Positions 4,621-31,595 of a stretch of 64,000 bases of DNA are shown here, in pieces (position 1 is the first letter of the stretch; each line of letters begins with the position of its first letter). This DNA is from an uncultured Desulfobacteraceae bacterium. GTDB taxonomy: Bacteria; Desulfobacterota; Desulfobacteria; Desulfobacterales; UBA5852. The position numbers were made by a program, and so were the translations under genes. Location of the stretch: assembly GCA_942491115.1 (NCBI GenBank), contig CALNZV010000020.1, forward strand, positions 512,524 to 576,523, given 5' to 3'. The notes under the pieces were generated by a model. That model worked only from the letters and a program-made list of their open reading frames with translations. It ran no database searches and was not told the DNA's origin.

Positions 4621-5724
4621 CTATTTCTTTAGAGCGTATTTTTCAGCGATCACATTGTAGTATGCATTTTCGGAGACCGATCCCCAAACGCCCACCTGGG
4701 CCTTGAATGTCTTGAATGCTTCATGAACCTTTCGGGACATGGCGTCTTTGTCAGCCTCTTCTTCAAGGGTTTCATCGGCCAGTTTGCGCAGGTCTTCCAT
4801 GAGCGGGTCCGGGAACCGCACCAGATTGACGTTGTGCTCCGAGATCAGGGTCTGCAAGGCGGCGCCGTTGCCGGCCTCGAATTCGGAAAGGCTCCACATG
4901 TTGGTTTCCGCCGCTACGGCGTCCACGATCGCCTGAAGATCTTTTGGCAGGGATTCGTAGGCCTTCTTGTTGAAAATAACCTCAAGGCATGTCCCCGGCT
5001 CGTGCCATCCAGGGTAGTAGTAATATTTGGCTGCTTTGTAAAATCCCATGCGAAGATCGTGCATCGGTCCGACCCATTCCGTGGCGTCGATGACCCCGCG
5101 CTCGAGGGAGGTGAAGATCTCCCCGCCGGGAAGAAGAACCACTGTCCCTCCGGCCTTGGCGATCACTTTGCCGCCCAGACCCGGGATGCGCATCTTCAAC
5201 CCCTTGTAATCGTCTATGGACTTCATCTCCTTTCGGAACCAGCCGCCCATCTGAACCCCCGTGTTGCCCTGGGGCCTGGGGATGACGTTAAAGGGAGCGT
5301 AAACCTCCTCCCACAACTGCAGTCCGCCGCCGCTGTAAAACCATGCGTTGATCCCCTGGGCGTTGAAGCCGAAAGGGACCGCTGCAAACCACTGGGCCGC
5401 CGGCACTTTACCGGCCCAGTAATATGAAGCGCCGCTGCCACATTCCACCGTTCCGTCGGAAACGGCGTCGAACACCCCCAGTGGGGGCACCAGCTCGCCG
5501 CCGGCGAACACCTGAATCTTCAGCCGCCCTTCGGAGACTTCCTCCACTCGCTTGGCAAACCGTTCCGCGCCGGTCTGAAGCACCGGCAGGTTGGGCGGCC
5601 AGGTGGAGACCATTTTCCACATGTACTTCTTCTGCGCGATGACCGCCGGAGCCGCCATCGTCGATGCCGCTGCCGCCGCCACGGCAGCAACACTCGTTTT
5701 TTTCAGGAAATCTCTTCTTTTCAT
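4621..5724 (-). CDS. dctP: TRAP transporter substrate-binding protein (DctP family, COG4663-like)
   Basis: 367 aa. Tat-like signal MKRRDFLKKTSVAAVAAAAASTMAAPAVIAQ. WKMVSTWPPNLPVLQTGAERFAKRVEEVSEGRLKIQVFAGGELVP is typical of TRAP solute receptors. AGGAAAGGAG RBS. Confidence 0.9.
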   Translation of the reverse strand: MKRRDFLKKTSVAAVAAAAASTMAAPAVIAQKKYMWKMVSTWPPNLPVLQTGAERFAKRVEEVSEGRLKIQVFAGGELVPPLGVFDAVSDGTVECGSGASYYWAGKVPAAQWFAAVPFGFNAQGINAWFYSGGGLQLWEEVYAPFNVIPRPQGNTGVQMGGWFRKEMKSIDDYKGLKMRIPGLGGKVIAKAGGTVVLLPGGEIFTSLERGVIDATEWVGPMHDLRMGFYKAAKYYYYPGWHEPGTCLEVIFNKKAYESLPKDLQAIVDAVAAETNMWSLSEFEAGNGAALQTLISEHNVNLVRFPDPLMEDLRKLADETLEEEADKDAMSRKVHEAFKTFKAQVGVWGSVSENAYYNVIAEKYALKK

Positions 5725-5788
5725 TTAGGGCTCCTTTCCTAGGTGGTGGTTGTCAGAGGAAAAACCCATCGACACGGTGAACGAAAGC

Positions 5789-5817
5789 ATCCTAATGATC
5801 TTGGACCATCGAATCAA
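5789..5817 (-). promoter_or_regulatory. candidate internal sigma70-type promoter for dctP
   Basis: Minus strand reads TTGATT-N17-TAGGAT inside the 192-nt dctM-dctP gap. Confidence 0.25.
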
Positions 5818-5916
5818 GCATTATTAAGTTAATAACCCGCCGTTGATCGATGAACATCGTTCAGTTTGTCGTGCTGGCGGATCTCCCCCACAGGATGACG
5901 GCGGTCTCGGCTCAGA

Positions 5917-7242
5917 TCAATTGCCGAAAACCACTTTCGGCAGCCAGGTAACGAGGGACGGGAAAAGGACGACGATTAGAAGCCCGATCAACTGAAAAAA
6001 GACAAAGGGGATGATACCCCGGTAGATATCACCGGTCTGAATTTCCGGCGGCGTCACCGCCTTCAGGTAGAAGAGAGAAAACCCGAAGGGCGGCGTCATG
6101 AAGGAGGTTTGAAGGTTGACGGCGATCAGGATGCAGAACCAGGCCGGGTCAAAGCCGAACTCGATCATAATCGGCGCCAGCACCGGGACGTGAATAAACG
6201 TGATTTCGATGAAATCCAGGAAAAATCCAATAACAAAGATGATACCCATGACGATGAAAAGCACGAACCACTTGCCATGGGTTTCGGCGATGCCCCCCAG
6301 GAACCCTCTGACCAGCTCGTCGCCCCCCATCCCCCGGAAGACAAGACCGAAGGCAGCGGCGCCCACCAGGATGATGAAGACCATACAGGTCAACTGCATG
6401 GTGGAGTCCATCACTTCTTTTAGAATCGTCAGGCTGAATTTTTTGTTGATAATCGTCAGGAAGGTCGCACCCACGGCCCCGACTCCGGCGGCTTCTGTGG
6501 GAGATGCGATGCCGGCGAAGATGGAGCCCAGAACGGCGAGCATCAGAAACAGGGGCGGGAACAAGGCACGGGTCACCTTCTTGAACAGGATCGACGGGGT
6601 GAGGGCGGCCAGTTCTGATTTGGGCGTTGCCGGAGCCCACTCCGGCCAGACCACGGCCGCGATAAGGATGTAGAGAATGTAGAGGCCCACCAGAACAAAA
6701 CCGGGCAGTACGGCGCCCATGAAAAGATCCCCTACCGGTACCCCGACGATGTCTCCGATCAGCACCAGTACGATGCTCGGGGGGATAATCTGCCCCAGGG
6801 TGCCAGAGGCGGAAACCGTCCCGGTGGCCAACTCCTTCCTGTATCCGCGTTTGAGCATGGTCGGAACGGCCAAAAGCCCCATGGTAACGACGGTAGCGCC
6901 GACAATGCCCGTCGAGGCGCCCAGTAGCGCCCCCACCACCACCACCGAAATGGCCAGACCGCCCCGCATTCGACCGAACAGTAGCCCCATGGTATTCAGC
7001 AAGTCTTCAGCGAGCCCCGACCGCTCCAACATGACTCCCATGAATACGAACAGGGGAACAGCCAGCAATGTGACGTTGGTCATGACCCCCCAGATGCGCA
7101 GCGGCAGCAGGTTGAAAAAGTCCCAGCCAAAGCCGATCAGCCCGAAGACCAAAGCGGTTCCCATGAGGGTAAAGGTGACGGGAAACCCCACCATCAGCAA
7201 AATGGTGAGCGCCAGAAACATCCAGCCCGGCAGGTATTCCAT
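5917..7242 (-). CDS. dctM: TRAP transporter large permease
   Basis: About 441 aa, highly hydrophobic multi-TM protein with DctM-like sequence throughout. ATG at 7242-7240 overlaps the dctQ stop (TGATG). Confidence 0.9.
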   Translation of the reverse strand: MEYLPGWMFLALTILLMVGFPVTFTLMGTALVFGLIGFGWDFFNLLPLRIWGVMTNVTLLAVPLFVFMGVMLERSGLAEDLLNTMGLLFGRMRGGLAISVVVVGALLGASTGIVGATVVTMGLLAVPTMLKRGYRKELATGTVSASGTLGQIIPPSIVLVLIGDIVGVPVGDLFMGAVLPGFVLVGLYILYILIAAVVWPEWAPATPKSELAALTPSILFKKVTRALFPPLFLMLAVLGSIFAGIASPTEAAGVGAVGATFLTIINKKFSLTILKEVMDSTMQLTCMVFIILVGAAAFGLVFRGMGGDELVRGFLGGIAETHGKWFVLFIVMGIIFVIGFFLDFIEITFIHVPVLAPIMIEFGFDPAWFCILIAVNLQTSFMTPPFGFSLFYLKAVTPPEIQTGDIYRGIIPFVFFQLIGLLIVVLFPSLVTWLPKVVFGN

Positions 7243-7772
7243 CAAGATTCTACCTCCGCCTCAGCATTTTTCCCAATGATGGTCAGAAAGCTCTTGAGTC
7301 CCAGAGAGATGCCCTGAAGGGTGATCAACCCAAACCCTGCGGGAATGCAGGCCTTGATGAGATACCGGTAGGGAATTCCGCCGGGGTCCGCGGATCCCTC
7401 CATGACGGCAAATGAGTTGCCGACGAACTTCCACGAAGTGACGATGACCATGTAGCAGCCGGGGAGCAGGAAAAACAGCACCCCCAGAAAATTGATCCAT
7501 GCCTTACCCTTGTCGCCAAAGCGCTGGTAGAAAATATCGACCCTGACATGACCGTCCTTGAGAAGGGTATAGCCGGCGCCCATAAGGAAAATGACGGCGA
7601 ATAGGTGCCATTCCAGCTCCTGGGTGAATACATAGCTCGTTTTGAATGCGTACCGCATCACGACATCGACGAAAACCACCAGGACGACCAGAGTGGTGAC
7701 CCAGGAGACCCCCTTTCCAACCCAGGTATTCAGAGTGTCGATCCACCGGCAAAGGGTCCGGATAAGCGCCAT
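7242..7772 (-). CDS. dctQ: TRAP transporter small permease
   Basis: 176 aa from the internal Met (MALIRTLCRWIDTLNTWVGK...). Four hydrophobic segments, located directly upstream of dctM. The longer ORF to 7832 has a non-native-looking N-terminus. Confidence 0.85.
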   Translation of the reverse strand: MALIRTLCRWIDTLNTWVGKGVSWVTTLVVLVVFVDVVMRYAFKTSYVFTQELEWHLFAVIFLMGAGYTLLKDGHVRVDIFYQRFGDKGKAWINFLGVLFFLLPGCYMVIVTSWKFVGNSFAVMEGSADPGGIPYRYLIKACIPAGFGLITLQGISLGLKSFLTIIGKNAEAEVES

Positions 7773-8195
7773 GGTTATTCCCTTTCTGACAAAAAAAAGC
7801 CGTCCGCTGTTGCGGGCGGCCGACGACGGCATCTTGGGTGACCGGCTGGGGATATGGGATCATGCAAAGGAGCACACCCTCGTTCATCGAAGTCGGAAAC
7901 CCTCAGTTCACAGGAGTATCCGCCGGTTCGGCTTGATGTTGGATAGAAATTGAGACTTCCATTTCGTATATTAGGGATTAAGATGGGTGTCAACCGGAGA
8001 CCGGTCGTTCGGGGGACCGACTGCCCAGATTCATTGACCTTCCCCCCCATTATTGAAGAGCACGCGACCCCGGCCCGGGCATGCCGCGTTCACCATTGCA
8101 GAGGGGTTTCCCGCGCATCCTTCGGGGAGACCGATACAGGGGAAAGATTCGTTGATGGACAGCGCTCCTCTCCGACCCCGACCGAGGATCACACG

Positions 8196-9419
8196 ATGTC
8201 TTCTTTTTCAAACGCCGAAAAGCAACTACTGACCGTGACCAGTTTCGGTCACTTCATGAGTCACTTCAACATGCTGACATTCCCCGCCCTGGCCATTCCA
8301 CTTGCCGGGGGACTGGACTTGCCCCTGGCCGAGGTCATGGGCCTGTCCTTTCCCATGTACCTGCTGTTCGGCCTAACCGCTCTCCCCTGGGGAATGATAG
8401 GAGACCGCTGGCGATCCGATCGTCTCATGGTCGTCTTCTTTCTCGGTGCTGGAATGGGGGGATTGGGTGCCGCTGTATTTATGGAATCACCGACGATGAT
8501 CGCCGCATCCCTTGGGGTGGTGGGCCTGTTTTCCGGCATTTACCACCCCATCGGGCTGGGAATGATCTCAAAGGGCGTGACACGCATCAGCGTTGCCATG
8601 GGCATCAACGGGATGTTCGGAAATCTGGGGTTGGCCATGGCACCGCTCCTGGCCGGCGTTGCCAATTGGATCTGGGGGCCAAGGGCGGCCTTTTTGATTC
8701 TGGCTGCCTTCAATTTCGCGGGAGCCCTCTGGGCCGCCAGGCTGCCCCATGGGACACCGCCGACCCGATCGGCATCAGTGGCCGAATCCCCGAACGGAAG
8801 CGGGCGTCAGGCCTTCGTGATCCTCCTGATGGCAATGATGCTGGGGGGAATCGTCTATCGGGGAGCCACTCTGACGACCCCCCCATTGCTGGAAATGAAC
8901 CTTCAAGGACTTCACCAGATGTTGACGCCTTTTGCCGGAGCCGCCCTGACCCCGAATCTGGAGGCCACCATCATCACCTCGGGTATTTTTCTGGTGGGAA
9001 TGATCGGTCAGTACACCGGCGGCAGGATGGCTGAACGGTTCGATCCCCGCTGGTGTTATTTGCTGTTTCACGCCTCCGCCCTTCCCATGGCGTTCATGAT
9101 GGCGAGGACCGCCGATCTGGGCCTGGTATCGGCTGCCGTGGTCTATTTTTTCTTTCTGCTCGGCATGCAGCCCGCGGAAAACACCTTGTTGGCCCGTCTG
9201 ACGCCGAAGCGTCTCCACCACTCGGCTTTCGGCGTCAAATTCGTTCTGACCTTCGGTGTCGGGGCCCTTGCCGTCAAAATGGTCGAAGCCATCGAGACGG
9301 CGCTCGATCTGGGTGCGGTGTTCATGGCCCTCGGCATCGGTTCAACCCTCCTGGTTGCCGTGATCCTGCTGCTCATCCGTCGAACAACCTCCGCGGTCGA
9401 TACCGTCGCAGCCAGTTGA
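8196..9419 (+). CDS. MFS transporter
   Basis: 407 aa from the ATG at 8196 (MSSFSNAEKQLLTVTSFGHFMSHF...). About 12 hydrophobic segments. The upstream part of the ORF (7950-8195, TTG start) looks non-coding. Confidence 0.85.
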   Translation: MSSFSNAEKQLLTVTSFGHFMSHFNMLTFPALAIPLAGGLDLPLAEVMGLSFPMYLLFGLTALPWGMIGDRWRSDRLMVVFFLGAGMGGLGAAVFMESPTMIAASLGVVGLFSGIYHPIGLGMISKGVTRISVAMGINGMFGNLGLAMAPLLAGVANWIWGPRAAFLILAAFNFAGALWAARLPHGTPPTRSASVAESPNGSGRQAFVILLMAMMLGGIVYRGATLTTPPLLEMNLQGLHQMLTPFAGAALTPNLEATIITSGIFLVGMIGQYTGGRMAERFDPRWCYLLFHASALPMAFMMARTADLGLVSAAVVYFFFLLGMQPAENTLLARLTPKRLHHSAFGVKFVLTFGVGALAVKMVEAIETALDLGAVFMALGIGSTLLVAVILLLIRRTTSAVDTVAAS

Positions 9420-9431
9420 AAGGCCTCCCCA

Positions 9432-10277
9432 ATGAACGACCGCTCATTGCCGATGGATGGATCGCAGACCGTGAGGGATTTGACGGGCGTCATCTTCGAC
9501 ATCAAAAAATTCGCCATTCACGACGGCCCCGGCATCCGAACCACCGTGTTTCTGAAGGGGTGCCCCATGACCTGCCATTGGTGCCACAATCCGGAGGGGC
9601 AGCGGCCCGACCCTGAACCGGTTCCCTGCCCCGGCCCGGCCCCTGGACCGGAAATGGCTACGGAAACCGTCATCGGCCGCCGGGTGCGCGCCGGAGACGT
9701 TCTCGCCGAAATCGAAAAAGACCGCCTTTTCTACGATGAAAGCGGCGGAGGTGCCACCTTTTCAGGAGGCGAGCCTCTGATGCAGCCCGATTTCCTTGAA
9801 GCGCTTCTCGACGGCTGTCGATCCGCATCGATCCACACGGTGGTGGACACCACGGGCTGCGTCCCTGCCCGCGTCTTGATGAGGATTATGGGTAAAGTGG
9901 ATTTGTTTCACTACGATATGAAACTGATGGACAGCCACATCCATCGGCGATTTACCGGTGTGCCGGTCGAGCCGGTTCTCGATAACCTCCAACGGCTGTC
10001 GGCTGCCGGCCGGCCTGTCGTCATCCGTTTTCCGTTGGTGCCGGGCGTCACCGACGACGACGACAACCTGACGGCCATTTCCGACTGGCTCCGTTCACTG
10101 CCGACGCCGCCCGTCCGGCTCGATGTGCTTCCCTTCCACCATCTGCATGCCGGCAAATACGCCCGTCTGGGCCGACGGGACCCCATGGTCTGCACCGACG
10201 GGGCATCGGCCGAGGAGGCCAGATCCGCCGCCGATTTTTTCAGAACCGACGGTTTCACCGTTACCATTGGAGGATGA
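9432..10277 (+). CDS. glycyl-radical enzyme activating protein (radical SAM)
   Basis: 281 aa. DGPGIRTTVFLKGCPMTCHWCHNPE (CX3CX2C). GGGATFSGGEPL motif. Stop overlaps the GRE start (ATGA 10274-10277). No ferredoxin-like CX2CX2CX3C insert is present. Confidence 0.9.
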   Translation: MNDRSLPMDGSQTVRDLTGVIFDIKKFAIHDGPGIRTTVFLKGCPMTCHWCHNPEGQRPDPEPVPCPGPAPGPEMATETVIGRRVRAGDVLAEIEKDRLFYDESGGGATFSGGEPLMQPDFLEALLDGCRSASIHTVVDTTGCVPARVLMRIMGKVDLFHYDMKLMDSHIHRRFTGVPVEPVLDNLQRLSAAGRPVVIRFPLVPGVTDDDDNLTAISDWLRSLPTPPVRLDVLPFHHLHAGKYARLGRRDPMVCTDGASAEEARSAADFFRTDGFTVTIGG

Positions 10278-12646
10278 ACCCGATGACACCGAGAATCCAG
10301 CAGCTTCGACGGGCCAGTCTGGAGGCCCCTGCATCCATCTCCCGGGAGAGGGCACAGCTCGCCACGGGATTCATGAAAGGGGCCGAAGGGGCCGGCGACG
10401 CGATTCCCGTCATGCGGGCCAAACTCTTCAGGCACATCCTCGAGCACAAGTCCATCTGGATCGGCGACGGGGAACTCATCGTGGGGGAAAGGGGTCCCAT
10501 GCCGAAGGCGACACCCACCTACCCCGAGATCTGTCTCCACACCATCGACGACCTTGACACCCTCGCCTCCAGGGAGAAGGTGGCATTCGCCGTGGACGAT
10601 GGGGTGAAGCAGGCCTATGAGGAAACGATCATTCCCTACTGGCAAGGGAAGACCATCCGGGAGAAGATTTTCTCCTCTGTGCCGAAAGCCTGGATCGACG
10701 CCTACGATGCCGGTGTATTCACCGAATTTCAAGAGCAGCGCTCACCCGGGCACACCGTGCTGGGCGACAAGATTTACCGCCATGGATTCCTTTATATGAT
10801 CCAAGAGATCAGGGCAACAGTGGCCGCCCTGGATTTCGTGAACGACCCGAGAGCCCTCGACCGCAGAGACGAACTTCAGGCCATGGAAATCGCCGCCGGG
10901 GGGCTCATCGCCTTTGCCGGTCGGTATGCCGATGCCCTGGCTGCGCGGGCTGCTGAAGAGACCGATGTCCAACGGGCTGACGAGTTGTCGACGATGGCCC
11001 TTATCTGCCGCAACGTACCCGCCCGGGCGCCCGAGACCTTCTGGGAAGCCCTTCAGTACTACTGGTTCGTCCACTTGGGGGTCATCACCGAGCTCAATCC
11101 CTGGGATGCCTTCAATCCCGGGCGGCTCGACCAGCACCTGTATCCGTTCTACCGGCGGGAGATCGACGCGGGAACCCTCGATCGTGAGAGCGCCAGGGAA
11201 CTGCTACAGGCCTTCTGGATCAAGTTCAACAATCACCCCGCCCCGCCCAAGGTCGGGATTACGGCCAAGGAAAGCAACACCTACGTGGACTTCGCCCTGA
11301 TCAATATCGGCGGCGTCCGACCCGACGGCGCCGATGCCGTCAACGACTTGTCCTACCTGATGCTCGAGGTGGTTGAAGAGATGCGGCTGCTGCAGCCAAG
11401 CGCCATGGTGCAGTTGAGCAAAAAAAACCCGGATCGTTTCCTCAAGCGGGCCCTTTCCATCATCAAAACCGGTTTCGGTCAGCCGTCCCTGTTCAACACC
11501 GACGGCATTATCCAGCAGTTGACGGGCCAGGGGAAACGCATCGAGGATGCCCGCTGCGGCGGGGCCAGCGGTTGCGTCGAAAGCGGGGCCTTCGGCAAGG
11601 AATGCTATATTCTGACGGGGTATTTCAACCTGCCGAAGATCCTTGAACTCACCCTTCACAACGGCCTGGATCCCCGAACCGGCCGGCAAATCGGCCCTGA
11701 AACCGGAGACCCACGCTCCTTCGACAGCTTCGCCGCCGTTATGGAGGCGTTTTCACGTCAGCTCCGCCATTTCATCGACATCAAGATCCGGGGAAACAAT
11801 ATCATCGAGAGGATCAACGCGAAGTACATGCCGGTCCCCTTTCTCAGCCTGTTGATCGACGATTGTATATCCAGGGGCCTGGACTACAACGAGGGGGGCG
11901 CCCGGTACAACACATCCTATATCCAAGGGGTGGGGCTGGGCACCCTGACCGACAGCCTGTCCTCGATCCGCACCCATGTATTCGAGCGGGGCGTGCTGAC
12001 CATGGGGGAATTGCTGGCATTGCTGGAATCGGATTTCGACGGCAGTGAGGCACTGCGACGTCGTTTTCTCGAAAACACGCCACGCTACGGCAATGATGAC
12101 GACGGGGCCGACGACCTGCTATCCGAAATCTTCGAGCAGTTTCACGGAGCGGTGGACGGACGCCCCAACACCAAGGGGGGGCACCACCGGATCAATCTAC
12201 TTCCCACGACTAGCCACGTCTATTTCGGCAGCCTCCTTGGCGCCACGCCCGACGGGCGGCAATCGGGCGCCCCTCTGTCGGAAGGCATCTCACCCGTGCA
12301 GGGCGCCGACCGCAGGGGGCCGACGGCGGTGTTGAAATCCGCCGCCAAAATCGATCACCTCCGCACCGGGGGGACGCTGTTGAACCAGAAGTTCACCCCG
12401 ACGATTCTCGAGGACGATGCCGGCATCGACCGACTGGCAAGCTTGGTTCGAACCTATTTCCGGATGGATGGACATCACATTCAGTTCAATGTGGTGGATG
12501 CCGACACCCTCAGGCGTGCCCAGTCGGAGCCCGAGAACTACCGCGATCTGATCGTCCGGGTGGCGGGCTATAGCGACTATTTTGTCGATCTGACGCCCGA
12601 ACTTCAGGAAGAAATCATCGGCAGAACTGCCCATTCGGTTATCTGA
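10274..12646 (+). CDS. hypD: glycyl radical enzyme, trans-4-hydroxy-L-proline dehydratase (HypD)-like
   Basis: 790 aa. Glycyl radical motif RVAGYSDYF near the C-terminus. Thiyl loop GGASGCVESG (Cys-x-Glu, eliminase type, not the PFL Cys-Cys). Length and residues at 160, 278, 434, 436, 450, 645 and 765 coincide with the HypD residues as I recall them. Alternative start at ATG 10283 (GGAGG at 10269-10273). Confidence 0.7.
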   Translation: MNPMTPRIQQLRRASLEAPASISRERAQLATGFMKGAEGAGDAIPVMRAKLFRHILEHKSIWIGDGELIVGERGPMPKATPTYPEICLHTIDDLDTLASREKVAFAVDDGVKQAYEETIIPYWQGKTIREKIFSSVPKAWIDAYDAGVFTEFQEQRSPGHTVLGDKIYRHGFLYMIQEIRATVAALDFVNDPRALDRRDELQAMEIAAGGLIAFAGRYADALAARAAEETDVQRADELSTMALICRNVPARAPETFWEALQYYWFVHLGVITELNPWDAFNPGRLDQHLYPFYRREIDAGTLDRESARELLQAFWIKFNNHPAPPKVGITAKESNTYVDFALINIGGVRPDGADAVNDLSYLMLEVVEEMRLLQPSAMVQLSKKNPDRFLKRALSIIKTGFGQPSLFNTDGIIQQLTGQGKRIEDARCGGASGCVESGAFGKECYILTGYFNLPKILELTLHNGLDPRTGRQIGPETGDPRSFDSFAAVMEAFSRQLRHFIDIKIRGNNIIERINAKYMPVPFLSLLIDDCISRGLDYNEGGARYNTSYIQGVGLGTLTDSLSSIRTHVFERGVLTMGELLALLESDFDGSEALRRRFLENTPRYGNDDDGADDLLSEIFEQFHGAVDGRPNTKGGHHRINLLPTTSHVYFGSLLGATPDGRQSGAPLSEGISPVQGADRRGPTAVLKSAAKIDHLRTGGTLLNQKFTPTILEDDAGIDRLASLVRTYFRMDGHHIQFNVVDADTLRRAQSEPENYRDLIVRVAGYSDYFVDLTPELQEEIIGRTAHSVI

Positions 12647-13774: not shown

Positions 13775-14185
13775 TTAGATTCGTTTCACGAAGGGAAAGA
13801 TCTCGGTATAGCCAAGAATATCCGTGACCAAGAGCACCAGAAAAACAATGAGCGACGCGCCGACGATGATCCCGAGAGTACCCCCGCCAGCGGGCATCTG
13901 ATCGATCCGACGGTTGATCTCCCGAACCTCGGTATCCGTTAGCGCGGCGACCCTCGCCCCGGCCTCGTCCGGGGAAATCCCTTGGGAGGAGAGAATATTC
14001 CGAACATCTTCCCGGTTCAAAAAGTCCTGGATCCTGCCACGCTCTGGGGCCTGAAGATCGCTTTCGAGGCAGCTGTCGGTGCCGATCATACGGGCATGGG
14101 CCACCGGTGCGGCCACCTGGGTGGCGCATACGGCGGCAACTAGAAAAATGGCTATCGCTTTGGTGAGGGCCTTGATGGATGGCAT
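13775..14185 (-). CDS. PA2779-type small protein (signal peptide plus C-terminal TM)
   Basis: 136 aa. GAGGAG RBS. Signal MPSIKALTKAIAIFLVAAVCATQVAAPVAHA. C-terminal TM GIIVGASLIVFLVLLVTDILG. Located directly upstream of the PA2778-type peptidase. Confidence 0.6.
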   Translation of the reverse strand: MPSIKALTKAIAIFLVAAVCATQVAAPVAHARMIGTDSCLESDLQAPERGRIQDFLNREDVRNILSSQGISPDEAGARVAALTDTEVREINRRIDQMPAGGGTLGIIVGASLIVFLVLLVTDILGYTEIFPFVKRI

Positions 14186-14309
14186 AGGCAGTCTCCTCTG
14201 GTTGGGGTGAGGGCAATGACGCCTTTGGCGCCAAAAAGTGGCCATACAGGGCCTCGATACCGGCGACGGGGTCGGAAACAGCACTGGATGGTCCGGCCCA
14301 TGCACCGCG

Positions 14310-14639
14310 TCAATCAATGGGTTTCCGAGAACGAACGGCATCTGAAACCCAGTCGAGGAAATCAGGATTCCCTCCCTCGATAGGGAGAGCGACGATGCAG
14401 GGGCAATCGTAGCTGTGGAGCCGTTTGACCGCGGCAACAAGATCCGGCAGGCGCTCCGTCGTCGTTTTGGCGATAAGCACCGCCTCCTGATCCTCCTGGA
14501 GTTCGCCATCCCAGACATAGAGACTTTCCATGCCGTCGATCAAATTCACACAGGCGGCAAGGTTTTCTGTAACCAGAAACCGTCCGATACGCCTGGCCTC
14601 ATCCAAGGTGCCGGCCGTCATGTAAACCCACTGGATCAT
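14310..14639 (-). CDS. cutA: divalent-cation tolerance protein CutA
   Basis: 109 aa. LAACVNLI...SLYVWDGELQEDQEAVLIAKTT...HSYDCPCIVALPI is a typical CutA1 pattern. AGGAGA RBS. Confidence 0.85.
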   Translation of the reverse strand: MIQWVYMTAGTLDEARRIGRFLVTENLAACVNLIDGMESLYVWDGELQEDQEAVLIAKTTTERLPDLVAAVKRLHSYDCPCIVALPIEGGNPDFLDWVSDAVRSRKPID

Positions 14640-14743: not shown

Positions 14744-14932
14744 TCAGCCGGAGCGACCGTCGTCACAGGGAGCGTCCTCTGAGTCGTACCGGGAGTGCTC
14801 CGCCCCCGACGCCTGGCAGACCGGAAGCGGCTCCGTTATGCGCATCTGCCGCCCACAGCATTCGGGCGGGCCGTTCGCTCCCGGGGCTGAGTCCACCGTT
14901 TTCTCACAATGGTCGCATTGGTAGTGGTTCAT
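14744..14932 (-). CDS. desulforedoxin-like Cys-rich mini-protein
   Basis: 62 aa from the ATG at 14932 (GGAGGA 4 nt upstream). YQCDHCEK...ECCGRQM matches the CxxC...CC desulforedoxin-type Fe(Cys)4 spacing. Acidic tail with two more Cys. Confidence 0.5.
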   Translation of the reverse strand: MNHYQCDHCEKTVDSAPGANGPPECCGRQMRITEPLPVCQASGAEHSRYDSEDAPCDDGRSG

Positions 14933-15403
14933 CGAATCCTCCATTGCATCACCGATGCGGGGAAAAGCACCGTAACTGGTAGTGATAGTAACGAAAACCC
15001 TTCTGATTGTAAAGCATATAGGAGCGGCCGACCCGCCGATGTGAGACCGCGGTCGCCTGACCGTTCCCATAGGGCGGGCGCGGATTCCGACGGTTATGAG
15101 GCCCCTCCCGATGGGCTCGAAGGGACCCCGACGTCGTCCGATGCCGACATCAGTGAGCGCCGGCCTTGCATTTCCATCTTGTTCGAAGCGGCCATTTTGG
15201 CGTATGGGAAAGGGACGGGAACGATCCTTCCGACGTCAGCAGGCGGCTGGGCCCCGGGTCGGGGTGGCCGTGGAAAAGAACGCGAACCGTCTCCGGGGAA
15301 AATCGAGGGTCGGGGCTCCATTTGCCATCAAGAGCCCAGCTGCCGGACAAGGCACGGGTCAAAACGATTCTGCCCACAGCAGGCAACAGAAAGGGGGACA
15401 CCA

Positions 15404-15835
15404 GTGATCACCGGTAAACCGTTGGACCGTCTTCAGGTGGGCGAACAGGCGGAGTTGGCCAAAACCATCAGTGAAACCGATATCTACCTCTTTGCGGGGA
15501 TTACGGGGGATTTCAACCCGGCCCACATCAATGAAGCCTATGCCGCGAAAACCGCCTTCAAATCCCGTATCGCCCACGGCCTGCTGCCCGCAGGGTTGAT
15601 ATCCGCCGTTCTCGCCAATCAACTGCCGGGACCCGGCACCGTATACATCGCACAGGAACTTCGATTTCTGGCACCGGTGTATGTGGGTGACACGATCACC
15701 GCCCGGGTGGAGGTCATCGATATCGATCGGGGGAAAAAACGGGTACGCTTGAAAACCAGCTGCCACAATCAGAGCGGCACCACCGTCATCGACGGCGAGG
15801 CCACGGTCAGCCCCCCCCGCCCCGTCAGGGAGTAG
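15404..15835 (+). CDS. phaJ: MaoC-like (R)-specific enoyl-CoA hydratase
   Basis: 143 aa from the GTG at 15404 (AAGGGGGA RBS). FAGITGDFNPAHINEAYAAKTAFKSRIAHG hot-dog hydratase motif. Adjacent to PHA genes. The long ORF from 14909 is an artificial extension. Confidence 0.8.
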   Translation: MITGKPLDRLQVGEQAELAKTISETDIYLFAGITGDFNPAHINEAYAAKTAFKSRIAHGLLPAGLISAVLANQLPGPGTVYIAQELRFLAPVYVGDTITARVEVIDIDRGKKRVRLKTSCHNQSGTTVIDGEATVSPPRPVRE

Positions 15836-16379
15836 GTTCCGACGGTTCCGGGTCGTCCCCATCGCCGGCGTCGCTCTGCCCGGTATCCGCCGAGGCCGGT
15901 GTTCGATCCTCGAGGTATTCACCGAAGGCCCGGACCAGATCGCCAAATTGGCGGGTCTGATTTTCGGTCAGCTCTTTCAGGGCTTCCATGGTCGTCGACT
16001 GAACATCGCCCTCACCGGTAACCACACCGCTCAGGTAACGAATCATCCGCGCCTGCTCCTCATTTTCTTTTCGGAGCGCATCCCGCTCCTCCTCAAGGCG
16101 GCGGTAGTCGTTGAGGGGAACGGCCCCCACCATCTGGAGCCAGCCCTCATAGGCTGCCTGGAAATCCGTCATGCCCGGTGGCAGGGGATCGGCCTCCGCG
16201 CTGCGCTGCCCCTCATTGCCCGGTGTCAACCGATAGGTTTGTCGAAACATTTCGGCCAGCCCGTCAGCGCTCGCCACACCGCCTCTGAACCACTTCGTCA
16301 TCTCATCGATCTGGGTCTGGCCCCGTGCCGCATTGATAAACAGATTTCCGATGAACTCCAAAAATCTCGGATCCATCAT
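15825..16379 (-). CDS. PHA synthase-associated coiled-coil protein (PhaE-like or class IV PhaR-like partner, tentative)
   Basis: 184 aa. Start overlaps the phaC stop (ATGA at 16376-16379). Central heptad-like segment (YRRLEEERDALRKENEEQARMIRYL) and an acidic Pro-rich tail. Confidence 0.5.
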   Translation of the reverse strand: MMDPRFLEFIGNLFINAARGQTQIDEMTKWFRGGVASADGLAEMFRQTYRLTPGNEGQRSAEADPLPPGMTDFQAAYEGWLQMVGAVPLNDYRRLEEERDALRKENEEQARMIRYLSGVVTGEGDVQSTTMEALKELTENQTRQFGDLVRAFGEYLEDRTPASADTGQSDAGDGDDPEPSEPTP

Positions 16380-17959
16380 TGGTCCCTCCCGGCTGTTTCG
16401 GCATCCAGCCGAAGCTGGAATTCAACAGGTCCGGCACAGCCGGTATTGGTGCAGACGTAGGCTCCGTCTCCGGCTTCCGGATCAAGGTTTGATGTGGCTA
16501 TGGCAACGTGTCCCCGGGGATAGGAGGACAGTTCGACGTCGATGAAGTCCATCGGCGCCAGCGCCGCCGCCGGATCCACGAGATTGTCCTTCTCCGCATA
16601 GCAGATCAGGTAGGGTATCTTTCGATCCCTGATGCGCTTGAAATTGAGCTGACGGCCAAACAATCGCACCGGCAAGGTGCCGTCATCGGAAACCGGTCGC
16701 CGGTAAGATTCAAAACTCAAGCGGGTGACCGCTTCCGGAAGGTCCACCTGGTCATAGAGCAGCCAGTGGTTGATGGCCAGGGAGGATTTGCTGAACCCTT
16801 TCTCCGGGGGGTCGAACCGGTCCATCATCTCGAGATCGCGGTAAAAGGCGGTTACCGGCCCTTCGAGTTCGATGCTTTTCAACTTGTAGACCCAGCTCAT
16901 GATCCCCCCGTCCACCACCCGGTTGCCGTTCGGCAGCACTTTGACGGCATAGCCGAGATCTCGAAACCCCTCGGGTAGCAGGCGAATGAATGCCGCCAAA
17001 TCCTTGCTTCGGGACCCGTCCATCGGGGACACGCAGGTCATCAGGGCATCGGCAAGTCCGTCGAGTTCCCCTGACAGAAGCGTCAGCATGGCCAGAAAGC
17101 CCCCCTGACAATAGCCGCAGAGGGTAGCGGGCCGACCGTGGGTTTTCAGGATGGCTTCACAAAAAAACCGCGTATCCGACGCATCTTCCTCTCCGGTCAT
17201 GGTCTGGACCGCCGGATGCTCGGAGATGGGTTTGATGATACGAATGAATGTCGGAAACCCCTGATTGGCAAAGGCATGAACGAAACTGCGGTTTTCAGCG
17301 GGTAAAAACGCCATGATGTTGGGGCCGAGGACCGACGGGGGAATGATCAGAATGGGTTTGGTGTCATTTCGGACTTCGACGCCCTGCCTGTTGGGGAGGA
17401 CCTGTAAGAGACGGAATCGGTCGGTTTCTGCGATGAGTCGGTAGCCGTCGTCGTCGAAGTGAAAGCCGAATTCCTCCTTGATATCATGGATGGCCTTGGG
17501 GAAACGTCGCGAAACCGCATCCATGAGCGCATACTGCCGCTGACTCAGCTGAAGCAGCTTCTCGAGGCCGCTTCCGTTGCCGACATCCAGACAGCCGGCC
17601 CATGCATCCATCCACTGGGGCCAGCGCCTCCCATGAAAGGTAGCAACGGCGTCCATGCTGCCGTTCAGGCAGCGGGCGGCCAGTTCGGCATTGACTGACA
17701 ACAGCGACAGATAATCTTGCAGAGAGTCCCACCGGGGACTCTCAATCCATTTTCGCTGTTCTCGCCGGACGAAGATGGCCGCAGCGTTCATCAGCGGCTC
17801 TAAAAAACCGGATGAATAGCCGGCCATCCCCTCCCAGTAGCGGGTAGCTGTCTGCCATTGCGAGGAGAAGAGGCGCAACCACAGTTCCCCTGTCGGGGTC
17901 AGAAGATCCAATGGGGTCGGGGCAGCAAAGGGATCGGTTCGAAGTGGGGTCCCCGCCAT
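16376..17959 (-). CDS. phaC: poly(R)-hydroxyalkanoate synthase PhaC
   Basis: 527 aa from the ATG at 17959 (GAGGAGAGGAG RBS). Alpha/beta fold with the PHA-synthase lipase-like box LCGYCQGG (G-x-C-x-G-G). Confidence 0.85.
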   Translation of the reverse strand: MAGTPLRTDPFAAPTPLDLLTPTGELWLRLFSSQWQTATRYWEGMAGYSSGFLEPLMNAAAIFVRREQRKWIESPRWDSLQDYLSLLSVNAELAARCLNGSMDAVATFHGRRWPQWMDAWAGCLDVGNGSGLEKLLQLSQRQYALMDAVSRRFPKAIHDIKEEFGFHFDDDGYRLIAETDRFRLLQVLPNRQGVEVRNDTKPILIIPPSVLGPNIMAFLPAENRSFVHAFANQGFPTFIRIIKPISEHPAVQTMTGEEDASDTRFFCEAILKTHGRPATLCGYCQGGFLAMLTLLSGELDGLADALMTCVSPMDGSRSKDLAAFIRLLPEGFRDLGYAVKVLPNGNRVVDGGIMSWVYKLKSIELEGPVTAFYRDLEMMDRFDPPEKGFSKSSLAINHWLLYDQVDLPEAVTRLSFESYRRPVSDDGTLPVRLFGRQLNFKRIRDRKIPYLICYAEKDNLVDPAAALAPMDFIDVELSSYPRGHVAIATSNLDPEAGDGAYVCTNTGCAGPVEFQLRLDAETAGRDQ

Positions 17960-17999
17960 GACGGCTCCTCTCCTCGGCAACAGCGTCGAGTGGCAGAGA

Positions 18000-18260
18000 T
18001 TATTCCCAGGCCTTGATTGCTGCGGCATATCGATCGGACGATTCCAGCATTGTCTTGTGGAGAAAGTCCGAGTTTTGCTTCATGTTGCCGGCCCATTGCT
18101 GGATGATCGATTTCCCGGTATCCGGCAGATAGGGAAGAGTCTCAATGCCGATCCGAATGGCCGTCTGGGCATGGTCCTGAAGCGCCGCCATGGTTTTAAC
18201 GGAGCTGCGAACCATTTCCCTGTTGTAAGCGCCCACGCGCGTCATCTGGTTTTTGATCAT
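18000..18260 (-). CDS. phasin-like protein (paralog 1)
   Basis: 86 aa (GAGGTGG RBS). Aligns by eye with the neighbouring 93-aa ORF (LPYLPDTGKSIIQQWAGNMKQ vs VPGMPEEGRKMVQEWADAYKK). Confidence 0.55.
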   Translation of the reverse strand: MIKNQMTRVGAYNREMVRSSVKTMAALQDHAQTAIRIGIETLPYLPDTGKSIIQQWAGNMKQNSDFLHKTMLESSDRYAAAIKAWE

Positions 18261-18302
18261 TGGATCCACCTCTGTTATTTGCAATGCACAATCAGTTAGG
18301 GG

Positions 18303-18584
18303 TTATTTTTTGGATTTGCCGGTATCGGCCTCGCCGAGGAATGAATCGAGCTTGTCAAACCCATCGTCCACCGCTTTTTTGTATGTCTCACGACCTTTTT
18401 TGTAGGCGTCGGCCCATTCTTGAACCATTTTCCTGCCTTCCTCTGGCATGCCGGGTACCTGTGACATCAGGGACTTGAACATGGCCTCGGTCTGATCCTG
18501 AACCATCACCAGGGCTGTGAAAGCGTTGCTGAACGTGGCTTTCTGAAATTCGACCATCTGCTTTGCAATCTTCTTTGATTCCAT
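18303..18584 (-). CDS. phasin-like protein (paralog 2)
   Basis: 93 aa from the ATG at 18584 (GGAGG RBS). Amphipathic helical, Lys/Glu-rich. First gene of the phasin-phasin-phaC-partner string. Confidence 0.6.
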   Translation of the reverse strand: MESKKIAKQMVEFQKATFSNAFTALVMVQDQTEAMFKSLMSQVPGMPEEGRKMVQEWADAYKKGRETYKKAVDDGFDKLDSFLGEADTGKSKK

Positions 18585-18815
18585 GGTTTGACCTCCTTGT
18601 CGTTGCTGCGGTTGTGGGTTGTGTGGGTCGGCGGACGCCAGTGCGTCCAGCTTGTTGCATTGCAACAAATATCTGGCATTCAGTCCTCATTGTCAAGTAA
18701 ATATTTACAAATCGCCCCTGGTAGGATACCCAAAACGTCGGCAATTCACCTTCATGCCTCTACAGGCAGTTCACCACCCACCCTGCCACCCCCGCCCAGG
18801 GAAGGAACCACAGCC

Positions 18816-19298
18816 GTGACCCATCCGGTGATGATTAAAAAATACGCCAATCGACGGCTGTACGATACCGATACCAGCCGATACATTACCCTGGGGGAGC
18901 TGGCCCAGCTGATTCGCGACGGCAAACGGGTTGAGATCGTCGACGCCAAATCGGGCGACGACGTCACCGCCTTCATCCTCACCCAGGTCATCATGGATCA
19001 AGCCAAGAACAACAACGCCCTGCTGCCGCCGCCCCTGCTGCATCTGGTCATCCGCTACGGCGACAATCTTCTGGTGGATTTCTTCGAAAATTACCTGCAA
19101 CAAGTCCTCAGCGCCTATCTGAACTATCGATCAACCGTCGACAAGCAGTTCAAGGAGTGGCTCGATATCGGAACGAATCTGGCGGATATTTCACGCCATT
19201 CCACAGGGGAACTGAATCCGTTGAAACCCTTTTTCGATATGTTTTTCGATGCCTCGACGGTTCCAACCCGAAATAAAAAAGTGGACGATGAGGAATAA
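18816..19298 (+). CDS. phaR: PHA synthesis repressor PhaR
   Basis: IKKYANRRLYDTDTSRYITLGELAQLIRDGKRVEIVDAKSGDDVTAFILTQVI is the canonical PhaR N-terminal DNA-binding domain. Start is the GTG at 18816 or the ATG at 18831. Divergent from the phasin genes. Confidence 0.85.
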   Translation: MTHPVMIKKYANRRLYDTDTSRYITLGELAQLIRDGKRVEIVDAKSGDDVTAFILTQVIMDQAKNNNALLPPPLLHLVIRYGDNLLVDFFENYLQQVLSAYLNYRSTVDKQFKEWLDIGTNLADISRHSTGELNPLKPFFDMFFDASTVPTRNKKVDDEE

Positions 19299-21504: not shown

Positions 21505-22338
21505 TCAGCCGCCGTGGGTGTCGGCATAGTCGGCAAATCGCTTCATGATATCCAGGGTGCGGGGCCCCGGGACGCCATCACCAAGGCGGATGGCATTGAT
21601 GCGAACCACCGGAACGATTTCCTTGTTCGATGCCGTAATGAAGGCCTCATCCATCAGCATCAGCTCATTGGCGTGAAGATCGCGTATCTCGAGAGGGAAA
21701 TCGTCCTTCATCAGATTGATGACCACCTGGCGCGTTATTCCCGGCAAAATCCCCGTATCCGGCGTCACCAGGACCTCACCGATAAACCCGAAGAAATTGG
21801 AGGTGGTGCCTTCCAGCACTCGACCCATGCCATCAACGTACAGAGATTCGACGGCCCCCTGCTCCCGGGCATCCTTGAGAGCGAGAATTCCCGGAATATA
21901 GTTGGTGCTCTTCGCTCCCGGCACGAACCGGTCTATATGGGAAGTGATCACCTTGACCCCCTGCGCGTACCATTCCTTGGGCAGCCCGTGGAGGGGGGTG
22001 ATCATCACGATCAAGCGCGGGTCGTCCATGGGGGTGATGGAATCTTCGCTGCCGCCCCCCGTCACGAGGATGCGGATATTGCATTCCCGGTGGGAACTTT
22101 TGGAGAGAGCATCCTCAACGATATGGATGATGTCCTGCCGGGACCATTTCAGGGTCATACCGATCAGCCGGGCGGATCGTTCCAACCGTTTCACGTGGTC
22201 GGCCAGATGAAAGGGGCGCTTTCCATAGGTTCGGAGAAAGTCGAACACGCCGTATCCTCTCAGGACTGCCAGATCTCGAATGCTGATGACCGCTTCCGAC
22301 TCCGTCACGGCCTTTCCGTCGATGGTGATGATGTCCAT
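21505..22338 (-). CDS. class IV (fold type IV) PLP aminotransferase (BCAT/D-amino-acid aminotransferase/ADC lyase family)
   Basis: 277 aa. AAGGAG RBS. RGYGVFDFLRTY, GAKSTNY (PLP Lys region), EGTTSNFF and ILPGITR motifs. Confidence 0.85.
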   Translation of the reverse strand: MDIITIDGKAVTESEAVISIRDLAVLRGYGVFDFLRTYGKRPFHLADHVKRLERSARLIGMTLKWSRQDIIHIVEDALSKSSHRECNIRILVTGGGSEDSITPMDDPRLIVMITPLHGLPKEWYAQGVKVITSHIDRFVPGAKSTNYIPGILALKDAREQGAVESLYVDGMGRVLEGTTSNFFGFIGEVLVTPDTGILPGITRQVVINLMKDDFPLEIRDLHANELMLMDEAFITASNKEIVPVVRINAIRLGDGVPGPRTLDIMKRFADYADTHGG

Positions 22339-22368
22339 GGGTATGCTCCTTTGGGGTATCCGTTGCCA

Positions 22369-23235
22369 TCATGGTGCCGGGTTGAATCGGGCCGCCAGGG
22401 TTTCCAGTTCCCTCTTCCGGGTTTTCGCCACGGAGACCGCCTCATCCATGGAAACCTCCTTGAATCGCACCATTTGCTCCGGTCCGATTTGGGCAAGAAA
22501 ATCCACATCGGCGCTGATGACGTTGTAGATGCGGGGGTAGCCCCCGACGGTTTGGCGGTGCCGAAGGAGAATGATCGGACCCTTCGGGGTCAATTGAATC
22601 GTTCCGTCGCTGACAGGAGCGGAGATCATATTTTCAAGAGACGTCGATAGCGTCGCTGTATCGCTGGACAACCGCATGCCCATGGTGCTCATCTCGTGGG
22701 TGGTTTTCCAGGATACGGCGGTAAAACGGTCTCCACGGTCCAAGGTGCCGTGTTCGGGACCTCTGAGGACACGGACCCGTCCCTCGGCGTCGGGCCAGGA
22801 AAACACGTCATCAAACCGCCCACGGCTCCTCCCGGCCAGCGCGGCATTCTCCTTGAGGCCGTCGGTGGGCAGCAGTGAAACATATCCCCTGAAGCCCAGT
22901 CCCTTTTCCCCCATCTCCAGCACGCTGCCTGAAGGGGCGGCTACCGTTTCGCCGTGCCGCACTGAAATCGCCTCTCCGCCAGCGGGAAGGAGAAGTCGAC
23001 AATGGGGAAAGTGGGCGCCGGTCAGGACCACGGTGCAGTTGGCTGTCAACCGGATAACCGGGGGAAGAATCACCTCCAGGGTGACGATGCCGCGATGACC
23101 ACCCAGAAGAATCCTGCCCGTGTCGAATGCCAGGCGATCCATACAGCCGCCGGGACTGACCCCCACATCCTGCCTGCCGAACACCGGTGGTCCCGCTTCA
23201 TCGAATAGACCCGATTGAAGGACGTCGTATGTCAT
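22369..23235 (-). CDS. pxpC: 5-oxoprolinase subunit C-like (PxpC/KipA, allophanate hydrolase subunit 2 family)
   Basis: 288 aa. MTYDVLQSGLFDEAGPP...GVSPGGCMD start and TVGGYPRI motif typical of this family. Confidence 0.8.
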   Translation of the reverse strand: MTYDVLQSGLFDEAGPPVFGRQDVGVSPGGCMDRLAFDTGRILLGGHRGIVTLEVILPPVIRLTANCTVVLTGAHFPHCRLLLPAGGEAISVRHGETVAAPSGSVLEMGEKGLGFRGYVSLLPTDGLKENAALAGRSRGRFDDVFSWPDAEGRVRVLRGPEHGTLDRGDRFTAVSWKTTHEMSTMGMRLSSDTATLSTSLENMISAPVSDGTIQLTPKGPIILLRHRQTVGGYPRIYNVISADVDFLAQIGPEQMVRFKEVSMDEAVSVAKTRKRELETLAARFNPAP

Positions 23236-23287
23236 CGATAGCTTTCATGGCACGGTGAAAAATCAGCGCTGGCGGCTGTTGTCCGAA

Positions 23288-23968
23288 TCAATCGATCCTG
23301 TCGACGGCCTCGAAGCGCACCCGGTCCCCCGGTTTGAGAACCGTCAGCAACTCGGGCCGGGTTCGCCCGATCAGGTTCCAGCCACCAGGAGATTCCTGGG
23401 GGTAGATACCGGTCTGTGCCCCGCCGATGGCAACGGTGCCCGCAGGGATCCGGGTCCGGGGGCTTTCCAGCCGTGGGGTGATCAATCGATCGTCCAGGCC
23501 GATAAGATAGGGGAAGTGGGGCTGGAATCCAATCATGGCAACCGTGTAATCGCCCCCAGCGTGAAGGCCGATCATCCTTTCGACGGACAACCCGCTGTGA
23601 CGGGCCACCCGATCCAAGTCTTCGCCGTCATAGACCACGGGGAATCGATAGGTTTCAGCGTCCGCCGGTGCGTCGACGTCTCCGCAACGACCGGCCGCTG
23701 TTCCGACCCGTTTGCGGATACGAGGGATGTCGGCGACAGCCGGGTCGAAATACAGCGCCACCGCATTGTAGGCCGGCACCACATCGGTCACCGAAAGCCC
23801 CTCCAAATAGGGATCCGCCTTCAGCGCCCGATAGAGCCGATGAACCTTCCTGGATACGGCGAGGCCGATGCCGTCGCCGAGGGACCAGCACAGGCAGCCG
23901 TCCCCGATGAAAAACGAGGCGCCCCCAGAGAGGTCCGCGCCGTCATTGTCTTCATAGTCGGTAGTCAC
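23288..23968 (-). CDS. pxpB: 5-oxoprolinase subunit B-like (PxpB/KipI, allophanate hydrolase subunit 1 family)
   Basis: 226 aa. VVPAYNAVALYFDP, IGFQPHFPYL and GGAQTGIYPQESPGGWNLIG motifs. Confidence 0.8.
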   Translation of the reverse strand: MTTDYEDNDGADLSGGASFFIGDGCLCWSLGDGIGLAVSRKVHRLYRALKADPYLEGLSVTDVVPAYNAVALYFDPAVADIPRIRKRVGTAAGRCGDVDAPADAETYRFPVVYDGEDLDRVARHSGLSVERMIGLHAGGDYTVAMIGFQPHFPYLIGLDDRLITPRLESPRTRIPAGTVAIGGAQTGIYPQESPGGWNLIGRTRPELLTVLKPGDRVRFEAVDRID

Positions 23969-31578: not shown

Positions 31579-31595
31579 AAAAAGGAGCGCAACCC

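Follow-up and report, generated by a model that had tools for sequence, protein, structure and literature searches.

A predicted hydroxyproline dehydratase (HypD) cassette in a variable chromosomal slot beside a TRAP transporter operon of Desulfobacterales

The glycyl-radical enzyme (GRE) HypD dehydrates Hyp (trans-4-hydroxy-L-proline) to 1-pyrroline-5-carboxylate (P5C). In Clostridioides difficile, a Stickland fermenter whose HypD structure has been solved (PDB 6VXC/6VXE), the gene lies directly downstream of one for a dedicated activating enzyme (AE, or activase) and has a P5C reductase gene, proC, adjacent to it. Structural work on that enzyme defined the CXE motif of the Cys loop and lists the residues that are catalytic or substrate-binding, H160, D278, D339, E436, F340, and S334 being essential by mutagenesis (PMC7077986). 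HypD is present in eleven phyla, environmental Proteobacteria among them (Huang et al. 2018), and most genomes that encode it have no adjacent proC, the absence of this gene from the neighborhood being the reported norm (PMC6219649). HpyG, HpzG, and HplG, enzymes of hydroxyproline derivatives (names from PMC13450708), are likewise GREs with a CXE Cys loop. Among transport proteins, TakP (SmoM) of Rhodobacter sphaeroides (2HZK/2HZL), a receptor of DctP fold with a twin-arginine translocation (Tat) signal, holds Na+-pyruvate via Y100, Q156, R177, E214, W215, and E240 (PMC1839085). We analyzed a 64-kb stretch of contig CALNZV010000020.1 from an uncultured Desulfobacteraceae bacterium, hereafter the window, in which a tripartite ATP-independent periplasmic (TRAP) transporter operon, dctQ-dctM-dctP (dctQMP), diverges from a major facilitator superfamily (MFS) gene, an activase gene (hypD-AE), and a GRE gene (hypD). 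To our knowledge, no uptake system has been defined for the anaerobic Hyp pathway, and a preliminary description of this DNA had seen here a HypD-like enzyme coupled to both transporters. The reading that we favor, with a probability of roughly 0.8, is that hypD-AE and hypD form a two-gene cassette for a genuine HypD, lodged in a variable Desulfobacterales slot, and that the neighboring TRAP operon functions independently of this cassette.

The identity of the enzyme was assessed by residue alignment, profile models, and phylogeny. If the ATG at 10274 is taken as codon 1, F152, H160, D278, S334, D339, F340, C434, E436, Y450, T645, and G765, all 11 of which the preliminary description had matched to C. 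difficile HypD, are confirmed by alignment, and W277, R156, and K326 are likewise present, giving 14 of 14 active-site and second-shell residues checked. The agreement of this numbering with that of C. difficile HypD stems from a 1-residue insertion near residue 40. Every residue essential by mutagenesis is among those kept. The window GRE and C. difficile HypD belong to the same length class and are 54.4% identical over 779 residues with one gap of a single residue. The Cys loop GCVE (residues 433-436) is the eliminase CXE motif (C434-V-E436), and the RVAGYS loop carries G765 (Pfam Gly_radical, 126.6 bits); both loops are identical to those of the C. difficile enzyme. On the NCBIfam equivalog for HypD, NF043068, the window GRE scored 1222.6 bits, above the cutoff of 1100, and other GRE equivalogs gave at most 534 bits against cutoffs of at least 1000. 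Comparison with solved structures gave 1009 bits for HypD (6VXC) and 520 for glycerol dehydratase. HpyG, HpzG, and HplG are only distantly related to the window GRE (459, 426, and 407 bits, respectively), which differs from them in having the HypD-specific set D278, D339, and S334.

In a library search, the HypD family collapsed to one full-length representative, P0361 (931 bits), and the next full-length protein reached 656 bits at 42% identity. HypD-model scores were 1427 for P0361, 1223 for the window protein, and at most 788 for the remaining representatives. The 14 key residues are invariant in 80 HypD-clade sequences, and no outgroup protein keeps the full set, the nearest representatives from outside HypD differing at several of these positions. 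In a neighbor-joining tree, a 17-sequence clade that contains the window GRE and C. difficile HypD, and whose HypD-like proteins carry ten phylum-level labels, split from the nine outgroup representatives in every one of 200 bootstrap replicates, with support counted directly from bipartitions. The proposed membership in the HypD clade thus held up both in the phylogeny and in the full complement of substrate-binding residues on proper alignment. Taken together, the window GRE is, as judged from its sequence, clearly a genuine HypD orthologue and is predicted to be a trans-4-hydroxy-L-proline dehydratase; a substrate other than Hyp is unlikely because clade placement, equivalog score, and the full residue set are all those of HypD.

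The nearest representative among GREs other than HypD is P0367 (798 residues), which is 42% identical to the window protein and, at 788 bits, stays under the HypD-model cutoff of 1100. It keeps R156, H160, K326, S334, D339, F340, Y450, and T645; Tyr replaces both D278 and F152, and W277 is lost. P0367 may represent a sister clade with a proline-like substrate and a different chemistry.

Residue-for-residue identity with C. difficile HypD suggests that the window enzyme would follow the HypD mechanism. The activase, with S-adenosylmethionine (SAM) and a single [4Fe-4S] cluster, would place a radical on G765, which would pass it to C434, and C434 would take a hydrogen from C5 of Hyp. Acid-base steps would be carried out by D278, H160, E436, and D339, with the carboxylate held by S334, Y450, and T645 and F340 stacked on the ring; water would be lost and P5C released. 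Enzymes encoded elsewhere would then handle P5C, housekeeping ProC converting it to proline or a P5C dehydrogenase to glutamate.

The activase contains the radical-SAM motif CX3CX2C at C44, C48, and C51 and passes the general model for the GRE-activase subfamily (Table 1). Its best equivalog is the HypD-AE model NF043069, on which it scores 261.9 bits, under the cutoff of 425, because cysteines of the auxiliary Fe-S clusters are missing; in the lack of these cysteines it differs from the C. difficile system. The insert that usually holds two ferredoxin-like clusters is Pro-rich in the window protein and has one Cys. Counts of 0-1 Cys in this insert were obtained for 68 of 72 hypD-linked activases, only those of the comparison loci L022, L034, L063, and L067 having 8-9, and a short, Cys-poor activase is therefore the norm for activases linked to hypD.

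The sub-cutoff activase score bears on a suggestion of the preliminary description that a HypD-clade GRE might act here on a different, related substrate supplied by the TRAP system, and the absence of the usual Hyp genes (ornithine cyclodeaminase (OCD), epimerase, prolidase) from the immediate context would fit that suggestion as well. Against it stand the identity of all 14 catalytic and substrate-contacting residues with those of characterized HypD and their invariance across the clade, the passing of NF043068, the distance from HpyG, HpzG, and HplG, and the ordinariness of the short activase. With every substrate-contacting residue conserved, the suggestion finds no support and is, in our estimate, hardly credible.

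The preliminary description had assumed a non-fermentative anaerobe, and the closest proteins to the window HypD do point to a Desulfobacterales-type (sulfate-reducer-type) anaerobic host: they come from Desulfobacterales metagenome-assembled genomes and isolates, for example Desulfosarcina, Desulfonema, and Desulfococcus, and several of these orthologues are already called trans-4-hydroxy-L-proline dehydratase by NCBI. Described isolates place the gene pair in other surroundings. Desulfosarcina ovata (AP021879.1) has the order AE-hypD-GntR-OCD/mu-crystallin-proline racemase family, and in Desulfonema ishimotonii AE-hypD stands alone; neither locus has an adjoining transporter, and their AE-hypD pairs are 67-70% identical to that of the window. 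The window differs from other Desulfobacterales loci in lacking the GntR, OCD, and epimerase-family genes and in the chromosomal position of its cassette, a different slot next to a TRAP operon. A literature search for HypD together with TRAP transporters found no paper, and one for HypD in sulfate reducers found nothing specific, its role there being undescribed in the literature searched.

Unlike the C. difficile locus, the window has no proC adjacent to hypD. Pfam matches to P5C reductase, F420_oxidored, proline dehydrogenase, aldehyde dehydrogenase, and OCD were absent from all open reading frames (ORFs) of at least 150 residues in the 64 kb. The earlier observation that proC and putA are missing from the window is therefore correct, but it does not set the locus apart: the lack of an adjacent proC is ordinary, since it is the norm in the literature and P5C reductase is not among the recurrent Pfam-annotated neighbor families of 80 hypD loci. 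Families that do recur in those loci are OCD/mu-crystallin (14 loci), the proline-racemase family (13), M24 Xaa-Pro peptidase (11), and GntR (9), together with S37/S28 peptidases and EamA. The window locus lies outside the clostridial hypD-proC (Stickland) operon type. The window also encodes, at 31476-32795 (+) and 19 kb from hypD, an M24 peptidase whose N-terminal domain is of the Creatinase/Prolidase type; an AMP_N-type M24 peptidase lies directly 3' of hypD in 11 other loci. The window peptidase was considered as a pathway partner and rejected, the link being weak at this distance and with a different type of N-terminal domain.

We next turn to the transporters, beginning with the synteny of the TRAP operon. 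Many of the comparison loci are short metagenome contigs, some of them from one sample, and the adjacency counts that follow describe linkage, not expression. Relatives share the gene order NosL-ABC ... dctPMQ, slot, C39/TPR-DUF6627-CutA1-MaoC ... PhaR-hydrolase-SpoU-aminotransferase IV (TPR, tetratricopeptide repeat) and vary only in the content of the slot between dctQ and CutA1. The slot is empty in L083 and L086, where CutA1 lies directly beside dctQMP (355 bp from dctQ in L086). It holds AE-hypD in L091 (3562 bp), L001, and L017; AE-hypD plus C39/TPR-DUF6627, without the MFS gene, in L162 and L165; the MFS gene alone, without AE-hypD, in L163 and L164; and MFS-AE-hypD in the window and L161. 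The C39/TPR, DUF6627, and CutA1 genes flank the slot in L161, L162, L163, and L165 as well as in the window. Across the syntenic loci dctQ is 68-78% identical, and dctM is 90-94% identical in relatives whether hypD is present or absent.

Co-occurrence of the TRAP operon and hypD was low in both directions. An AE or GRE gene is adjacent in 3 of 80 metagenome loci whose receptor is 69-91% identical to that of the window, and, where 1.5 kb or more of sequence is available upstream of dctQ, in 1 of 32 receptor loci. Conversely, among the 56 hypD loci whose upstream sequence extends for 3 kb or more, this TRAP operon occurs in 3, all of the window's own lineage. Other neighbors of this TRAP are RACo, CdhD, an acetyl-CoA hydrolase/transferase-GNAT fusion, gamma-glutamyltranspeptidase, and a sigma-54 activator. 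Because this TRAP keeps its position whether or not hypD is there, the operon is a conserved backbone gene set that probably functions independently of hypD. Orphan receptors 82-85% identical to that of the window were also seen in nine metagenome loci (L081, L082, L092, L093, L101, L104, L109, L113, and L127), in which neither dctQ nor dctM lies close by although 2.5 kb or more of upstream sequence is available; most are flanked by genes for rubrerythrin, an SBP_bac_3 protein, a helicase, and an Omp85 protein.

The receptor itself is most similar among solved chains to 4PET, 5CM6, 7UG8 (deposited as 'Ketoacid-binding protein'), and TakP (2HZK), with 300-327 bits for TakP and the 4PET/5CM6 chains, and the calcium-lactate receptor 2ZZV is more distant than these. 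The 4PET and 5CM6 chains presumably carry bound pyruvate. Like TakP, the window receptor combines a Tat signal with the DctP fold, and all six TakP contacts are kept, as Y102, Q158, R179, E216, W217, and E242. R179 aligns with the carboxylate-binding Arg of TakP (R177), and the retained cation ligands are Q158, E216, W217 (a main-chain ligand in TakP, W215), and E242. Over 15 pocket positions the window receptor is identical to 4PET at 13 and to TakP at 11; the pocket-lining positions 42, 49, 99, 245, and 247 differ from TakP. The pattern at the 15 TakP pocket positions, WLAYYTQRATEWETL, is the same in all 8 loci with hypD adjacent and in 66 of the 73 where it is not, and hence the pocket is not retuned where hypD is present. 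The receptor is predicted to be a TakP-type, cation-dependent binder of alpha-keto acids. From the ligand- and cation-binding residues, dctQMP would be a Na+-dependent TakP-type importer, separate from the HypD cassette, that takes up a cation along with small monocarboxylates of the 2-oxo or 2-hydroxy type, pyruvate for example. Hyp, with its zwitterionic secondary amine, would fit such a site poorly.

An intergenic alignment and a motif scan of all loci revealed a conserved element oriented with dctQ, which consists of a palindrome, ATGAATnnCATTCAT, followed by GTTGACA-N14/15-TAATATAC. It is located at 9022-9051 in L001, 9024-9053 in L017, 7950-7979 in L091, 7577-7606 in L090, 2921-2949 in L163, and 8976-9004 in L165. 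The window retains the promoter-like part (Table 1) and has ~23 nt of other sequence where relatives have the palindrome just upstream, and regulation there may therefore differ. The element is probably the TRAP promoter plus an operator. Since it is also found in L090, where hypD and the MFS gene are both missing, it belongs to the TRAP operon. A shared promoter-operator joining the MFS gene to AE-hypD was considered on the basis of this element and was rejected, given that the element points with dctQ and occurs in L090. A general promoter and terminator scan gave numbers near those of shuffled sequence and was not used as evidence, and an Rfam scan of the whole window detected no RNA family and so no riboswitch 5' of the MFS gene or dctQ.

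These data speak to the first proposal of the preliminary description, that the TRAP transporter is a new high-affinity uptake route for Hyp that feeds HypD. The operon lies next to the cassette in divergent orientation, an arrangement kept in the window and at least eight related loci. The same TRAP, however, with DctM ~90% identical and an identical pocket, lacks hypD in most loci, its promoter-like element is retained where hypD is missing, its other neighbors include acetyl-CoA pathway and acyl-CoA transferase genes, and the Na+/2-oxo-acid site of TakP is conserved, in which the protonated secondary amine of Hyp would not be expected to coordinate the cation. We consider this proposal very unlikely. 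The claimed coupling to the TRAP system is not supported by the linkage counts (3 of 80 receptor loci, 3 of 56 hypD loci) or by a receptor pocket that hypD leaves unchanged.

The MFS protein had no match in the PDB or NCBIfam and belongs to a large uncharacterized Desulfobacterales family. Homologues 50-68% identical to it lie in or beside TakP-type TRAP operons without hypD in L120, L128, L145, L146, L148, L163, L168, and L170. The order is dctQMP-MFS in L120, L146, L148, and L168 and dctQM-MFS in L170; the gene diverges from dctQ without hypD in L128, L145, and L163, and it stands alone in L169 only. None of 80 hypD loci from other genomes carries it. The MFS gene thus associates with TRAP and not with hypD, as its homologues recur in or beside TRAP operons that lack hypD, and the proposed coupling of the HypD enzyme to this transporter is not borne out, with 0 of 80 hypD loci containing the gene and L163, L168, and L170 containing it without hypD. 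In the lineage of the window, an MFS gene of this TRAP-travelling family would simply happen to sit directly upstream of AE-hypD. In L168 the MFS gene is followed by the acetyl-CoA hydrolase/transferase-GNAT fusion, and members of the fusion family are found near the TRAP operon in L105, L111, L130, L159, and L160; this suggests that MFS, TRAP, and fusion form a module for the uptake and activation of short-chain carboxylates.

Several observations weigh against a HypD cassette that is unrelated to its neighbors. In the window and in L161 the MFS stop codon lies 12 bp ahead of the AE start on the same strand (9419 and 9432 in the window), a spacing suggestive of a single transcript and thus of a function that the genes might share; the MFS gene is probably co-transcribed with AE-hypD in the window. 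TRAP-hypD adjacency is kept where HypD is only 73-79% identical (L001, L017, L091, L162, and L165), and so persistent an adjacency could reflect selection rather than inherited synteny. In addition, TakP-family receptors can presumably bind N-heterocyclic 2-carboxylates, as we take to be the case for picolinate in 4YIC.

The short gap, the repetition of the MFS-AE-hypD arrangement in L161, and the lack of any other candidate for a Hyp transporter at the locus would be explained if the MFS protein were the lineage's importer of Hyp or Hyp peptides, encoded in an ancestral MFS-AE-hypD operon from which relatives later lost either the MFS gene or AE-hypD. This is unlikely in view of the closest MFS homologue (68%, L163), which fills the same slot without AE-hypD, the five loci (L162, L165, L001, L017, and L091) with AE-hypD and no MFS gene, the homologues of 50-58% identity inside dctQMP operons far from any hypD, and the absence of the gene from hypD loci of other genomes. 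We likewise think it improbable that, in the lineage of the window and L161, the MFS gene was recruited into one transcript with hypD-AE and hypD as an importer of Hyp or a Hyp dipeptide. If the MFS protein did import Hyp, it would fill a gap: the anaerobic HypD pathway would gain its first assigned transporter, and Hyp derived from collagen would be tied to sulfate respiration by way of P5C and glutamate.

Under the reading preferred here, of a HypD cassette beside an independent TRAP operon, the locus holds an ordinary representative of a known enzyme family rather than a new uptake pathway, because the TRAP and MFS genes keep this position whether HypD is present or not. Adjacency at this site would reflect a variable chromosomal slot rather than a pathway, and the TRAP system should not be annotated as a hydroxyproline transporter. 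Beyond correct annotation the import is small, since HypD is well characterized, occurs across many phyla, and typically has no proC next to it.

The genes, strands, GCVE and RVAGYS motifs, and Tat-signal receptor given in the preliminary description are borne out by the ORF map and by Pfam and NCBIfam matches (Table 1). Receptor homologues are named 'TRAP-type mannitol/chloroaromatic compound transport system' by JGI, which we take to be the COG4663-type name. For hypD, the activase stop codon lies 5 nt ahead of the ATG at 10283, and the ATG at 10274 overlaps the same stop. A GGAGG is located 9 nt 5' of the ATG at 10283, where the public NCBI protein of the contig, P0001 (787 residues), also begins. 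The true start is likely this ATG rather than that at 10274, because the Shine-Dalgarno spacing and the public record agree. For dctQ, the start may instead be at 7772, as its homologues have 176 residues.

Table 1. Positions in the window of the genes and elements at the hypD locus.
Feature	Position	Strand	Basis
dctP, TRAP receptor	4621-5724	-	Pfam DctP, 195 bits; Tat signal TIGR01409, 19.9 bits (cutoff 16.7)
dctM, TRAP large membrane subunit	5917-7245	-	Pfam DctM, 279 bits; TIGR00786, 328 bits
dctQ, TRAP small membrane subunit	7242-7832	-	Pfam DctQ, 83 bits
Promoter-like element upstream of dctQ, GTTGACA-N14-TAATATAC	7966-7994	-	Intergenic alignment, motif scan
MFS transporter	ORF 7950-9419; likely start 8196 (M83), 407 residues	+	Pfam MFS_1
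hypD-AE, radical-SAM activase, 281 residues	9432-10277	+	TIGR02494, 265.6 bits (cutoff 174)
hypD, GRE	Maximal ORF 10274-12646, 790 residues; likely 10283-12646, 787 residues	+	Pfam PFL-like and Gly_radical
C39-peptidase/TPR gene, slot flank	12687 to ~13700	-	NCBIfam and Pfam matches
DUF6627, slot flank	Inside ORF 13775-14518	-	NCBIfam and Pfam matches
CutA1, slot flank	14310-14639	-	NCBIfam and Pfam matches

Two further gene sets were noted in the window. Genes for a class IV aminotransferase, CT_A_B and CT_C_D proteins (PxpC/PxpB-like), and D-glutamate cyclase are located at 21505-24737 (-) and are syntenic in L161, L162, and L165; the cluster resembles a module for D-glutamate/5-oxoproline that has no relation to hypD. 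At 14909-19298, flanked by CutA1 and the hydrolase/SpoU genes, is a set related to polyhydroxyalkanoate (PHA) metabolism that comprises a MaoC dehydratase, a 550-residue protein that matches class III PhaC weakly and has no Pfam hit, and PhaR. This PHA-related set is absent from L001, L017, and L091 and is present in L161, L162, and L165.

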